Positions 13,256 through 15,795 of a stretch of 64,000 nucleotides of DNA are shown here, one piece after another. The DNA is taken from positions 1,794,699-1,858,698 of the forward strand of contig OY759726.1 of NCBI GenBank assembly GCA_963662625.1, given 5' to 3'. The DNA comes from Nitrosopumilus sp. (lineage in GTDB: Archaea; Thermoproteota; Nitrososphaeria; Nitrososphaerales; Nitrosopumilaceae). Under the pieces are notes generated by a model. That model worked only from the letters and a program-made list of their open reading frames with translations. It did no database searches and was not told the DNA's origin. The position numbers were made by a program, and so were the translations under genes. Positions within the stretch are counted from its first letter, which is position 1, and each line of letters starts with the position of its first letter.

Positions 13256-13283
13256 TTAGGCCATGCGCGTACCAGAACCCAGT

Positions 13284-13679
13284 ATGCTATTCGGGAAGAA
13301 GTTCGAACGGCAGGTCTCCCTGCAGAGGGACGTCCTAGACAGCATACTGTCATACTGCAAGATGAAGCACCCTAACGAGGGGATCCTGATCCTGAAGGGC
13401 AAGTCCAAGAAGGGCGACATCAGGGTGGACGGCCTGGTGATCCCCCCGTTCAACTACACGGGCCCCACGTTTGCCGGCTTCCCGCACTCGTTCCTGCCGT
13501 TTGACATGAGCTACGTCGGCAGCGTCCACTCCCACCCGAGCGGCTCTGCGGACCCCTCGATCACCGACCTGCACAACTTCTTCGGGCTGGTGTCGGTCAT
13601 AGTCAAGGCCCCGTACGAGGATGAGGACGTCTTTGCGTGGGACAGCGGGGGCAAGCCCATCAGGATCGACATAGTCTGA
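13284..13679 (+). CDS. JAB/MPN (JAMM) metalloprotease
   Basis: PNE...HSHPSGSADPSITD JAMM motif. Confidence 0.92.
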   Translation: MLFGKKFERQVSLQRDVLDSILSYCKMKHPNEGILILKGKSKKGDIRVDGLVIPPFNYTGPTFAGFPHSFLPFDMSYVGSVHSHPSGSADPSITDLHNFFGLVSVIVKAPYEDEDVFAWDSGGKPIRIDIV

Positions 13680-13919
13680 CGGCCCCGTCGTGCGTCCTTG
13701 GGGCGCCAAAGTGGAACAGCGTGGCCGCGACGCGCTGGCGGACGTGCCCTTGGCTGGGTACTCGCACCCCCCGACGGCCGCTCCTACGAAGCGTTCCTCC
13801 GGGCGCTCGTGCTCCAAACCGTGGGCATCGAGTGCTTCCCGCACGTCGTCCGTGGCCACGTCAGGCCATAGTTTCCCAGCAGCTTCCGGGCCGTCCTGGA
13901 AGCGGTCGTCGTTTGCCAT
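13680..13919 (-). pseudogene. Unknown ORF starting 2 nt after hammerhead cleavage site; apparently 3' truncated
   Basis: MANDDRFQDGPEAAGKLWPDVATDDVREALDAHGLEHERPEERFVGAAVGGCEYPAK...; frame runs on antisense into the JAB gene to a stop at 13350. Confidence 0.4.
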
Positions 13920-13967
13920 GCGACGCCGCTCGCGGCGTTTCGGCCACCGGGGCCTCATCAGGCAGGC
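13915..13967 (-). ncRNA. Type I hammerhead ribozyme (copy B)
   Basis: Minus strand: gccugc CUGAUGA ggcc-ccggu-ggcc GAAAC gccg-cgag-cggc GUC^ gcauggc; full catalytic core and stems I-III. Confidence 0.93.
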
Positions 13968-14029
13968 TGTCTGGGCGTCTTTCAAAAATTAAATACTCGG
14001 GGGTCCAACATCAGGTGGTGGGGGCTCAG
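13915..14029. repeat. 115-bp direct repeat (partner 15493-15607)
   Basis: Ungapped alignment at offset 1578, 11 mismatches by manual count; similarity resumes at 14089-14130 vs 15706-15749. Confidence 0.95.
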
Positions 14030-14108
14030 CTGGACTTTAGTCCACCTACTCTTCATCTCCAGATGAAGGGATTAGCAGTGCCAAGTTTTCATCATCGCCC
14101 TCACCATC
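14014..14108 (-). ncRNA. Box C/D-type RNA (unit B)
   Basis: Terminal stem, C AUGAUGA (14095-14089), D' CUAA (14075-14072) or CUGG (14062-14059), C' AUGAAGA (14056-14050), 20-nt guide, D CUGA (14029-14026). Confidence 0.75.
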
Positions 14109-14175
14109 CAAGCCAGTCCCATGGGACGGCCATCCCAAATCGAACACTAAAATAACTCCGGGGCCTCCTGAAGGT

Positions 14176-14245
14176 GGCGAGGGGTCAGATCTGACAGTCA
14201 TCATCACAATGATGATCAGAAGCCGTTCTCATCATCCCCCTCGCC
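14176..14245 (-). ncRNA. Compact box C/D-type RNA with two 9-nt guides (unit C)
   Basis: GGCGAGGGG g AUGAUGA gaacggcuu CUGA ucaucauugug AUGAUGA cugucagau CUGA CCCCUCGCC: four perfect boxes and a perfect 9-bp terminal stem. Confidence 0.85.
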
Positions 14246-14643
14246 CGGTTCACCCGGCACTTGCCGGGAAATGCCGCCAACCGGCGTGACTGCCGGACCA
14301 ATTCCGGCGTGAAAACGTGAAAGGAGACGTCTTGCGTGAGACAAGACACATGGAAGAAGGCACGTAGGATGTCTCGTGTGGCATAAGACGCGGCGCCATG
14401 GTGACACTTTGGCATGTTAGATGGGGGTTTACTAGGGTCCGATTTTGTGTTTGGTGTTTTGTTCCTGTTTTGGTTGGAACGCCCACCATAACCGCGAAGG
14501 ATACTAGGGAGTTCGGGTTTTGTCGGAGCCCGCAGACGTCCTCCCCCGCAGGGTATATGGATCGCGCCGTCCCGGGGTTGCCAACGGGGCCACTGGCTGC
14601 CGGCGCGGCCGCGCCCGCGGCGCTCCTTGAACGACATGGACCG

Positions 14644-15270
14644 TCAGTCGAACAGACTGTAGAGCTGGCTGTCTGTAAGACGTGGGGCTTCGCGGGTCTC
14701 GGAGCACATGTTTGACACGTACCTGCCGTGTTCCGGAAGGTAGATGCCCTTCCCCGGAACGTATCTCCCGATGCCCTGCAGTATGCGGGCGACATCCCCT
14801 TGAGAGTGGCTCTCGGCCACTGAAGTTGCCATGGATCCCCTGCCGGGGGTTTCGCCCATCCAGGGCTCCTCAGCATGGCTTCGTTTGGTAAAAAAGGGGG
14901 CGGCTACCGCCTGCCGCCCATGCCGTCCCTGAGCCTTTGCCAGTGGGCCTTTTAGGTCCCACGACCTTTTTGGCGCAGAACTCGAGCCGCCGGAGGACCC
15001 CGCGGGGGAGGCACTCTTCCAGGTCAGACCTGGACTCCCCCGGAGCAGCTGCTCCAGAACCGCCTTGCACTTGGCCGGCCCCATGGCTTGGAATTGCTCC
15101 CTGTACCAATCGGAACCGTGGAAGTCCGGCGGGTTGCAGAACTGGCACTCCTCCCCGTACTCGTCCCCGCGGGGATTGACGTGGTCGTGCGCGTCCGCTT
15201 GATCCTTTTCGATCAGTTTGGCGGCCAGCAGGTAGTGCTCGACCACCCGAGCCGATGGGAGTTCCCCCAT
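14644..15270 (-). CDS. Hypothetical protein, possibly frameshifted continuation of 15213-15497
   Basis: 208-aa ORF with HxH...CxxC; no recognisable family. Confidence 0.4.
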   Translation of the reverse strand: MGELPSARVVEHYLLAAKLIEKDQADAHDHVNPRGDEYGEECQFCNPPDFHGSDWYREQFQAMGPAKCKAVLEQLLRGSPGLTWKSASPAGSSGGSSSAPKRSWDLKGPLAKAQGRHGRQAVAAPFFTKRSHAEEPWMGETPGRGSMATSVAESHSQGDVARILQGIGRYVPGKGIYLPEHGRYVSNMCSETREAPRLTDSQLYSLFD

Positions 15271-15497
15271 CCGGTGCCGATTGGATTCCCGGAGCCTACG
15301 TCCGTCAGTACGTCGCCGTCACTTATGGCGACAACATCGTTCTTGCAATAAAATTTGCGGGTTCGGCCCTCTGGGCCGGCTTGGGCGCGTACGGCGTCGT
15401 CGAGGCCTAGCCTCTCCTGTACGTGCTTGCAGACGCTTTTGGTTAAGAACGTCCTACCTCCTATGGAGATTTGCTTCATGACTGTTTGTTCTGCCAT
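15213..15497 (-). CDS. Hypothetical protein starting 2 nt after hammerhead cleavage site
   Basis: MAEQTVMKQISIGGRTFLTKSVCKHVQERLG...; overlaps the next ORF in another frame. Confidence 0.45.
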   Translation of the reverse strand: MAEQTVMKQISIGGRTFLTKSVCKHVQERLGLDDAVRAQAGPEGRTRKFYCKNDVVAISDGDVLTDVGSGNPIGTGWGNSHRLGWSSTTCWPPN

Positions 15498-15545
15498 GCG
15501 ACGCCGCTCGCGGCGTTTCGACCATTCAGGTCTCATCAGGCAGGC
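15493..15545 (-). ncRNA. Type I hammerhead ribozyme (copy A)
   Basis: Minus strand: gccugc CUGAUGA gacc-ugaau-gguc GAAAC gccg-cgag-cggc GUC^ gcauggc; stem II covaries with copy B. Confidence 0.93.
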
Positions 15546-15591
15546 TGCCTGGCCGTCGTTCAAAAATTAAATACTCGGGGATCCAACATCC

Positions 15592-15725
15592 GGTGGTGGG
15601 GGCTCAGTTGTCACGGCTTGAAGATGTCTCATCATTTGCGCCATGTCAGACTTTCACTGGAGTACAGCGTCGGCACTGGCATCATCATCATCGCCCTCAC
15701 TGGCATCATCATCGCCCTCACCATC
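15592..15725 (-). ncRNA. Box C/D-type RNA (unit A)
   Basis: Same terminal stem as unit B; C AUGAUGA (duplicated by a ~21-24-nt tandem duplication), D' CUGA (15649-15646), C' AUGAUGA (15635-15629), 21-nt guide, D CUGA (15607-15604). Confidence 0.8.
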
Positions 15726-15795
15726 CAAGCCGGATCAGATGGGAACGGCGCGGTCGACAAAACTTTATAAGGTTTTTGACGGTAGTTGCAGTGGA

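Follow-up and report, generated by a model that had tools for sequence, protein, structure and literature searches.

Box C/D sRNA-like units with a constant terminal stem, and putative type I hammerhead ribozymes before start codons, in a Nitrosopumilus genome

In a stretch of 64,000 nucleotides from a Nitrosopumilus sp. genome (contig OY759726.1, positions 1,794,699 to 1,858,698; hereafter the window), two RNA-like units, A and B, share their ends and flanks and have unrelated interiors. We propose that both are members of a family of box C/D small RNAs (sRNAs) read from the minus strand, and that they lie in a cassette together with type I hammerhead ribozymes placed before AUG codons, which would cut the transcript into near-leaderless mRNAs. 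Judged from the sequences, we hold this explanation as a whole to be probable. It draws on the sequence anatomy, the covariation of paired positions, the statistics of guide and target pairing, the distribution of the elements among relatives and the presence of the genes for the corresponding ribonucleoprotein (RNP). The genome under study (G000) is a single contig of 1.86 Mb; of the related genomes mentioned below (G016, G028, G079, G284 and G438), G016 belongs to the same genus. Coordinates given without a contig are those of the window.

The box C/D sRNA family and its guides

Unit B (CD1_B; 14012-14110, minus strand), delimited by reading and folding the sequence, has the order ggatggtgagggcg-AUGAUGA-59 nt-CUGA-gcccccaccacc on the minus strand. 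Its 13-bp terminal stem and its C and D boxes are the same as those of unit A (CD1_A; 15590-15727, minus strand), which was delimited by reading and by a repeat search. In unit A the 13-bp stem encloses a 35-nt D' spacer, a D' box CUGA, a C' box AUGAUGA, a 21-nt D spacer and the D box CUGA; the interior between the same arms measures 77 nt, or 98 nt from the outer of two C boxes, the C box and its stem arm being duplicated in tandem with a 21-nt period (15685-15710 and 15706-15731). The repeat search connected the units through a direct repeat of 119 nt with 90% identity (13914-14032 and 15492-15610) and a repeat of 26 nt with 100% identity (14089-14114 and 15706-15731), and the interiors proved unrelated when aligned between these blocks. 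The repeat search and the alignment confirm what the initial annotation had described as paralogous units with a common stem, C/D boxes and flanks and unrelated interiors, and the tandem duplication of the C-box arm and the two A.C mismatches of the 13-bp stem on the minus strand are likewise as reported there. The D guides of 20 and 21 nt given in the same place hold only if AUGAAGA in B and AUGAUGA in A are taken as C' boxes, the D' box of B then being a degenerate CUAA. These degenerate boxes are the only internal ones in B, with spacers of 13 and 20 nt; the AUGAAGA/CUAA region lies in a hairpin, and the 59-nt interior folds as two hairpins. A search for sequencing runs that contain this DNA listed no RNA run, and four DNA contig sets compared over the region revealed only assembly breaks at the repeats and variants matching the paralogous locus.

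A third unit, a second locus and the hammerhead nature of the common flank had been overlooked in the earlier reading. The third unit, CD2_win (14171-14250, minus strand), is a compact C/D sRNA-like RNA on a sister scaffold (GGCGAGGGG/CCCCUCGCC), with C, D', C' and D boxes all present and spacers of 9 and 12 nt, and it is the best C/D match of the region in Rfam (snoPyro_CD, 35.1 bits, E 6.7e-5). AUGAUGA and CUGA are found on the minus strand in A, B and CD2_win; A and CD2_win also have D' and C' boxes of the form CUGA and (A/G)UGAUGA, in place of which B has only CUAA/AUGAAGA. The second locus holds two more units, one per scaffold, and their interiors are again different. Among the five units of G000 the conserved parts are the kink-turn (K-turn) and the stem only, and all five retain perfect C and D boxes and stems. 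A relic of a CD2-CD1 pair, recognised by sequence comparison on the plus strand (G000:C1:1742853-1743020, equal to L011 853-1020), serves as an internal control for these intact units: its D' guide and D boxes are recognisable, and its C and C' boxes and stems are eroded by A-to-G changes, for example GAUGAUGA to GAUGGUGA. Other C/D sRNA candidates with different terminal stems occur in the genome (G000:C1:1032410-1032463 and 438189-438269, plus strand, and 285622-285678, minus strand; snoPyro_CD 43.3 and 25.6 bits, below the cut-off), so that the GAGGGC scaffold is not universal in this organism.

The family scaffold consists of a fixed K-turn and the terminal stem GAGGGC/GCCCUC, the terminal helix ending 1 nt before box C and starting directly after box D. 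These box offsets (1,0) are equal in A, B, CD2_win and the other C/D candidates of G000. The pattern GAGGGS-N-RUGAUGA ... CUGA-NCCCYC matches four places in G000 and, in a sample of 401 genomes of the same family, 12 genomes from three genera, against none for the same pattern written backwards as a control; the scaffold of A and B is therefore not a product of chance. No match to it was found in viral contigs. The units form tandem arrays, with nine units in G079, two arrays of five in G284, three units in G438 and four plus one in G016. Units of these relatives have interiors of 39-50 nt, the full canonical box set (C, D', C' and D) and guides that are mostly 12 nt long (spacers mostly 10-14 nt). 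The ten distinct scaffolds show compensatory changes at stem positions 1, 7 and 8, and position 5 is A-U in seven of them and A.C in three. Fibrillarin (271 bits), Nop5 (225 bits) and L7Ae (91 bits) are encoded in G000, all above the Pfam cut-offs. We assign A, B and CD2_win to a box C/D sRNA family peculiar to the family of ammonia oxidisers that includes G000; in our reading these sRNAs are ordinary methylation guides whose stem is unusually constant. That one K-turn scaffold is kept across genera suggests that some step of sRNA assembly or processing is sequence-specific.

The guides themselves recur across genera: three genomes have GUUCCAUUCAUU unaltered and a fourth has it with a single change, and a guide of the (A/G)UGAAACGAC type is present with small changes in three genomes. 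We compared 24 distinct guides from 20 units (G000, G016 and G284) with the 16S and 23S rRNA and 41 tRNAs of G000, taking as canonical a pairing that starts 1-3 nt from the D or D' box and covers the fifth nucleotide (N+5). Seven of the 24, two of which represent one orthologous pair, form at least 10 bp with rRNA or tRNA in this register; in 40 sets of shuffled guides the mean number reaching this length was 0.65 and the maximum 3. The excess of guides antisense to rRNA or tRNA (7/24, with 0.65 expected) points to the minus strand. The predicted methylation sites of the family are at position ~1348 of the small-subunit rRNA and at ~858-862, 2015 and 2066 of the large-subunit rRNA. The earlier view of paralogous minus-strand box C/D RNAs with a fixed scaffold and different guides is supported by the K-turn geometry, the family and the guide-target statistics. 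Its caveat that an antisense transcript might be made instead is settled in favour of the minus strand for the family by the exact K-turn geometry, the C'/D' boxes in A and the relatives, and the antisense orientation of the guides.

The 21-nt D spacer of unit A contains the 9-nt core AGCCGUGAC of a 12-nt guide from G284, which belongs to another genus; positions 2-11 of the spacer, counted from box D, make 10 Watson-Crick bp with tRNA-Asp(GUC). For unit B the best pairing with rRNA or tRNA is 9 bp, no better than shuffles. Searched against host sequence, the window interiors yielded nothing further: scans of the whole interiors of A, B and CD2_win against rRNA and tRNA were at the level of shuffles, and the interiors of A and B had no match over 14 nt elsewhere in G000 in a whole-genome blastn-short search. 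The unusual length of the guides is not supported as a design feature, given the 39-50-nt interiors and 12-nt guides of the relatives, the core of a 12-nt guide inside the spacer of A and the absence of a target of at least 10 bp for B; the long spacers of the window are better described as derived states of G000, those of A having been expanded. Nor do we retain the idea of reprogrammable guides: the same guides recur across genera, and the pattern fits duplication with guide replacement, as in the Pyrobaculum sRNAs (PMC6009581).

Putative hammerheads, start codons and motif X in the cassette

The common flank of A and B holds a sequence that we identify as a type I hammerhead ribozyme. Along the minus strand the 119-nt repeat begins with an AT-rich spacer and one strand of stem I; then come CUGAUGA, stem II with its cap, GAAA, stem III, likewise capped, GUC and GC-AUG. 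The window has three copies, all on the minus strand: the type I copy HH_A (15486-15550; core CUGAUGA...GAAA...GUC; predicted cut 15500/15499; AUG 15497-15495), HH_mid (14820-14884; core CUGAGGA...GAAA...AUC; predicted cut 14834/14833; AUG 14832-14830) and the type I copy HH_B (13908-13972; predicted cut 13922/13921; AUG 13919-13917). They score 86.7, 74.2 and 81.8 bits, respectively, with R1, a covariance model built from five G000 copies (four sites of a strict descriptor and HH_mid). That descriptor found 4 sites in G000, all in the cassette, and 1, 0, 2, 0 and 0 in five block-shuffled genomes. With R1, 14 copies were obtained in four genomes (G000, G016, G028 and G284); matches occurred in 2 of 150 other genomes of a family sample, in 3 of 80 of a class sample and in none of 70 outside the family. 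The Rfam model Hammerhead_1 matches HH_A at 15494-15545 (20 bits, E 0.22); a G016 copy reaches 35.4 bits, above the cut-off of 34, and further scores in relatives are 33.8 and 28.2 bits.

In the alignment of the 14 copies (13 distinct rows), whose fitting to the model favours the figure, 97.2% of cells pair, and 9 of the 12 pairs have changed on both sides. The observed covariation was reached by none of 500 shuffles, and slid partners gave 18-43%. The pairs G10.1-C11.1 and A15.1-U16.1, which are invariant in hammerheads, are unchanged in all 13 distinct rows; the catalytic core is present in all three window copies and GAAA in 13 of the 14 family copies. Stem II of HH_mid is GCCC/GGGC, a compensatory change relative to GGCC/GGCC and GACC/GGUC in other copies. 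The minimum-energy fold of HH_A is the three-way junction of a hammerhead, and that of HH_B is not a hammerhead. The start codon is part of this arrangement: an AUG lies 1-2 nt past the predicted cut in 13 of the 14 copies (GUG in the remaining one), and the 3' strand of stem I is made up of this AUG and the codon after it. In G000 and G016 all 10 copies are followed by an open reading frame (ORF), of 26-238 aa; in G028 and G284, which have the other 4 copies, the stretches read continue as open frames.

The cassette, of about 1.6 kb, is present at two loci of G000, and relative to the second locus the window carries a head-to-tail 1.3-mer. Its minus-strand order is A, spacer, hammerhead, ORF198, hammerhead, ORF62, non-coding block, CD2_win, B, spacer and hammerhead. 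ORF198, an orphan of 198 aa, is intact at the second locus (G000:C1:149053-149646) and is represented in the window by a frameshifted copy (14890-15497, minus strand) in three pieces with 76-91% identity to it. Among 200 family genomes it has no homologue save one weak match (E 8e-5), and none was found in a set of 5.8 billion proteins except the window's own copy, nor in viral contigs. The 62-aa ORF62 after HH_mid (14644-14832, minus strand) is a homologue of L002:638-826, and neither it nor ORF198 has a Pfam, PHROG or PADLOC match. The non-coding block (14419-14615, minus strand) is 97% identical to G000:C1:150092-150289. We interpret the window copy of the cassette as the more derived one, its ORF being frameshifted, B lacking proper C'/D' boxes and the spacers of A being expanded.

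In G016 an intergenic module recurs four times with the order oligo-U, motif X, C/D sRNA, AT-rich spacer of ~35 nt, hammerhead and AUG. G284 has an array of five sRNAs followed by one hammerhead and a membrane-protein gene, and G028 has hammerheads without C/D units; the association of sRNAs and hammerheads is thus frequent in the lineage, not fixed. In G028 (L024 3040-3180, plus strand), short A/C-rich repeats with CCUGAYA stand before a hammerhead, in the place that C/D sRNAs take in other genomes.

Motif X, a structured RNA ~75 nt long, is conserved and comes after an oligo-U run; it reads GUGACCUGRC, P1, AAACC-P2, hairpin, CUGACAGGCAGG, P2', UGUGG, P1'. Copies are located on the minus strand at L010 3856-3940, 5807-5889 and 6641-6725 (equal to G000:C1 ~145856-148725), at L023 270-351, 686-767, 1423-1507 and ~1962-2045, and at L027 5147-5225, and on the plus strand at L024 4138-4234, 5516-5596, 8583-8665 and 10991-11073. 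The 12 aligned copies, one of them cut short by the coordinates chosen, come from four genomes in three genera; 88% of cells pair, 8 of the 15 pairs have changed on both sides and the covariation score was reached by none of 500 shuffles. Both sides of a possible CCUG/CAGG pseudoknot are invariant. No Rfam match was obtained at E up to 1. The motif stands directly 5' of the C/D sRNAs in G016 and before ORFs of the second locus in G000; its role could be that of a processing signal or of a new ribozyme.

Two kinds of promoter-like element accompany the cassette. A palindromic element resembling a B recognition element (BRE) and TATA box, caaaacTTTATAAggtttttg (15758-15778), precedes unit A by 30-50 nt on the minus strand. 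We regard it as a candidate promoter for this unit, and the divergent plus-strand gene could make use of it as well. AT-rich spacers occur on the minus strand at 15551-15589, with UAUUUAAUUUUUG at 15561-15573, and at 13973-14011, with UAUUUAAUUUUUG at 13983-13995. The plus-strand BRE/TATA-like CAAAAATTAAATA that the initial annotation pointed out is indeed present in both copies at these same positions; we prefer to read it as part of an AT-rich spacer or promoter before the hammerhead. The spacer may be a promoter for a hammerhead-mRNA unit, an oligo-U stop for the sRNA, or both. A similar AT-rich element stands 20-34 nt before the hammerhead in G016 and G284; present in three lineages, it could equally start a transcript at the ribozyme.

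A hammerhead-AUGGC pattern run over a wide set of genome contigs gave 61 loci, with ~30 expected by chance as an estimate, and of 20 of them scored on Rfam only 1 attained the gathering score; loci of Nitrosopumilaceae and Nitrosopumilus are among the 61. The same pattern gave 10 viral loci, 5 of which score with R1. In the IMG/VR contigs L103, L104, L106, L109 and L111 the hammerheads are of type I, their core is similar and one strand of stem I is UAUGGC. A viral origin was considered and set aside: the scaffold has no match in viral contigs, and L106, the one viral locus read, continues with a Shine-Dalgarno sequence and a later ATG, so that it resembles a bacterial phage leader and is unrelated. 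A weak Hammerhead_1 match outside the cassette (G000:C1:1834-1878, plus strand; 21.4 bits, E 0.011) was not confirmed by the strict descriptor.

Predicted processing and competing explanations

We propose the following course of events, in which transcription, self-cleavage and methylation are all predicted steps. Transcription of the minus strand would start at the 15758-15778 element, and perhaps also at the AT-rich spacers. Each hammerhead would fold with the start codon in stem I and cut 1-2 nt before the AUG, and the mRNA released downstream would begin with a 5'-OH and keep a leader of 1-2 nt. Should the sRNA be part of the same transcript, this cut would also free a 5' fragment bearing the sRNA and ending in a 2',3'-cyclic phosphate; L7Ae, Nop5 and fibrillarin would define the mature sRNA, with the remainder trimmed back to the RNP, and through these proteins the family would guide 2'-O-methylation of rRNA and tRNA. 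Guides would change by duplication and guide replacement on the fixed scaffold. The 1-2 bases kept before the AUG would supply the -1 base that the triphosphate mimics in leaderless Saccharolobus mRNA (PMC11698992).

The proposal can be extended, tentatively, to a natural ribozyme-delimited cassette, in which one precursor containing the sRNAs and the small ORFs would be cut by the hammerheads, and possibly by motif X as a new ribozyme class. Such a cassette would amplify in tandem; its pieces, sRNA precursors and near-leaderless mRNAs, would have 5'-OH and 2',3'-cyclic phosphate ends, so that RtcB, which is present in G000, could circularise them. If true, this would be the first natural link between self-cleaving ribozymes and the biogenesis of methylation-guide RNAs. 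A retrozyme-like circular RNA arising from the two window hammerheads that lie 1578 nt apart was retained only within this extension.

Several observations weigh against the explanation by a minus-strand sRNA family coupled to hammerheads. On the side of the guides, the rRNA of G000 was used as a proxy for the relatives' own rRNA. Among the window units only the D spacer of A has a 10-bp match (to tRNA-Asp), with an N+5 site (C36) that differs from the register implied by its G284 homologue, and for B and CD2_win no target of at least 10 bp was found in G000 rRNA and tRNA. Spacers as long as 20-35 nt conflict with the 12-nt ruler of archaeal C/D RNPs. Nowhere in the window is the gathering score of an Rfam family attained: CD2_win, with 35.1 bits, is below the snoPyro_CD cut-off of 45, the best scores of B and A are 19.6 bits (sR39, cut-off 50) and 16.8 bits, and HH_A, with 20 bits, is below the Hammerhead_1 (RF00163) cut-off of 34. 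As to the ribozymes, HH_mid has one C.A mismatch at the base of stem III, a G016 copy carries a G12-to-U change in the core, and of the three window copies only one has the hammerhead as its minimum-energy fold; the energies, with z-scores between -1.1 and -1.7, are not unusual. A hammerhead lies within 1.5 kb at only one of 11 other scaffold loci, the G284 one, which shows that the pairing of sRNA and hammerhead is not obligatory. Finally, the A.C mismatches of the stem become G.U pairs when read on the plus strand, and folding energies fail to separate the strands.

Some of these points would also fit a different account, which we find doubtful, namely that A and B are dying pseudo-sRNAs in a decaying duplicate cassette, that they no longer guide and that their interiors are debris of insertions and deletions. 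Decay would explain the ORF198 copy broken by frameshifts into three pieces, the stem III mismatch of HH_mid, and a unit B without proper C'/D' boxes, with a two-hairpin interior and without a target of at least 10 bp. It would also explain the 21- and 35-nt spacers of A and interiors of 59 and 77/98 nt against 39-50 nt in the relatives; and the CD2 unit of the second locus looks like a relative's unit from which the D'/C' region has been deleted. The five G000 units nevertheless keep perfect C/D boxes and stems, unlike the true relic at 1742853-1743020, which lost its boxes by A-to-G changes. The flanks of A and B are 90-100% identical, so the copies are young or constrained, and the D spacer of A keeps the conserved guide core in the canonical register. 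We hold A and B to be family members in either case, and they may or may not guide methylation at present.

L7Ae binds to K-turns in archaeal mRNA leaders, and the stem-loops could be imagined as cis-acting L7Ae-binding elements that regulate or stabilise the downstream mRNA, with an interior free to vary. The conservation of K-turn and stem alone among the five G000 units, their position upstream of same-strand ORFs and the presence of an L7Ae gene agree with such a role. We consider it improbable, because the hammerhead that lies in between would cut the K-turn off from the ORF, because relatives have full C'/D' boxes and guides matching rRNA, and because arrays of up to 9 units occur without an adjacent hammerhead or a link to an ORF. 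Still less probable, in our judgement, is a plus-strand antisense RNA started by the BRE/TATA-like CAAAAATTAAATA ~20 nt before the stem, which would then be fully paired with G.U in place of A.C. An A-rich BRE-like run does stand 5' of TTAAATA at a suitable distance from the stem, B, A and the second-locus unit fold slightly more stably when read on the plus strand, and the A-U/A.C variation at stem position 5 would be A-U/G.U on that strand. The plus strand, however, has no K-turn boxes, its guides would be sense to rRNA and would leave the enrichment of guide-target pairs unexplained, the spacer sequence and its distance from the stem are not conserved in G016 or G284, and the ORFs and hammerheads of the arrays are all on the other strand; moreover, the drift of G000 from A:T to G:C, seen also in the relic, by itself turns A-U into A.C. 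We give almost no credence to a programmable system directed against foreign or host nucleic acids, with long spacers swapped to retarget an effector. The fixed scaffold with unrelated interiors, and the low-GC surroundings of the cassette with their restriction-modification genes and nuclease-like gene, had made it worth considering; the interiors of A and B lack any match over 14 nt elsewhere in G000, the scaffold was not found in viral contigs, the guides recur across genera and match rRNA, and no effector is evident beyond the ordinary C/D proteins. Integron attC-like sites and CRISPR-like mini-arrays were rejected because no integrase is present and the boxes correspond exactly to a K-turn, and a miniature inverted-repeat transposable element because the interior is not conserved.

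Known systems and neighbouring genes

The C/D sRNAs of Pyrobaculum evolve by duplication, guide replacement, circular permutation and spread in the manner of miniature inverted-repeat elements (PMC6009581). As in that genus, the present units are paralogues with common boxes and flanks, different guides and some orphan guides, and some Pyrobaculum units are co-transcribed with protein genes or other RNAs (PMC6009581). Unlike there, a terminal stem sequence of 6-9 bp is kept here across three genera, in dozens of units and in tandem arrays, a hammerhead follows units in three genomes, and the window spacers are 20-35 nt long against 8-12 nt. Clustered hammerheads flanking prophage genes have been proposed to cut a long transcript into gene-length mRNAs, and the haloviruses HF1/HF2 have a hammerhead 13 nt upstream of a start codon (PMC3088659). 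The cassette resembles the prophage clusters in having several hammerheads of the same orientation between short genes, and differs from both cases in that its hammerheads are type I with the start codon in stem I and a predicted cut 1-2 nt before the AUG, in that the host is an ammonia-oxidising archaeon, and in that C/D sRNAs stand directly upstream.

In the 5' untranslated regions of fungal and plant RNA viruses, self-cleavage by type I hammerheads enables translation initiation (PMC13725137). These viruses share with the cassette a type I hammerhead just upstream of an ORF and a cut, here predicted, that makes the translated 5' end; they are eukaryotic systems with cap-independent initiation and RNA genomes, unlike the archaeal DNA genome and the 1-2-nt leader considered here. 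A laboratory hammerhead has been used to make leaderless archaeal mRNA, and in Saccharolobus the 5'-OH leaderless mRNA binds the 30S subunit less well than the triphosphate form, the triphosphate mimicking a -1 base (PMC11698992). The cassette would act like that construct, in which a ribozyme set ahead of the AUG cuts itself off, so that the mRNA begins with a defined 5'-OH; in contrast with the man-made version, the natural copies keep 1-2 real bases before the AUG. In the literature outside subscription journals and supplements, no account of such hammerheads for Nitrosopumilus or Thaumarchaeota was found.

Ribozyme-flanked guide RNA cassettes exist as man-made designs. Paralogous C/D sRNAs with replaced guides, clustered hammerheads between genes and hammerheads before a start codon (in haloviruses and RNA viruses) are already known. 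What appears to be new in the predicted arrangement is that the start codon is built into stem I, that the leader measures 1-2 nt, that the host belongs to this group of archaea and that box C/D sRNAs are coupled to it directly; this by-product of the analysis, the hammerhead together with motif X, is more interesting than the original claim. The maturation of archaeal box C/D sRNAs is poorly understood, and the natural roles of hammerheads in cellular genomes are mostly unknown. A start codon in a hammerhead stem with a predicted cut 1-2 nt before it would offer a concrete, testable case for both questions, and motif X adds a candidate for a new structured RNA. The host group comprises abundant environmental archaea that are hard to study genetically, and the predicted cut and methylation sites are exact enough for testing.

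Beyond the sRNAs and ribozymes, the surroundings of the cassette have features of their own. Homology between the cassette copies ends at HH_B, and a Prok-JAB domain gene (13263-13679, plus strand; Pfam E 3.4e-11) converges on this truncated end. The ORF after HH_B runs antisense through the Prok-JAB gene, so the product of this ORF is doubtful. The genes of the cassette are orphans except for SNase-like membrane proteins. These membrane-anchored proteins (PF00565) are encoded at L010 3156-3842 (minus strand) and L024 3230-3913 (plus strand), with E values of 3e-5 and 2.6e-7, respectively; the gene stands directly after a hammerhead in G028 and after motif X in G000. Restriction-modification genes for a BsuBI/PstI endonuclease and an Eco57I-type methylase adjoin the second locus of G000 (L010 9514-11975, minus strand), and a large methylase-like gene with an NPPW motif adjoins the array of G016 (L023 3232-6000, plus strand). 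The GC content drops from ~0.65 to 0.50-0.55 beyond the second locus, which, together with the restriction-modification genes and the methylase-like gene of G016, suggests an accessory and possibly mobile region.

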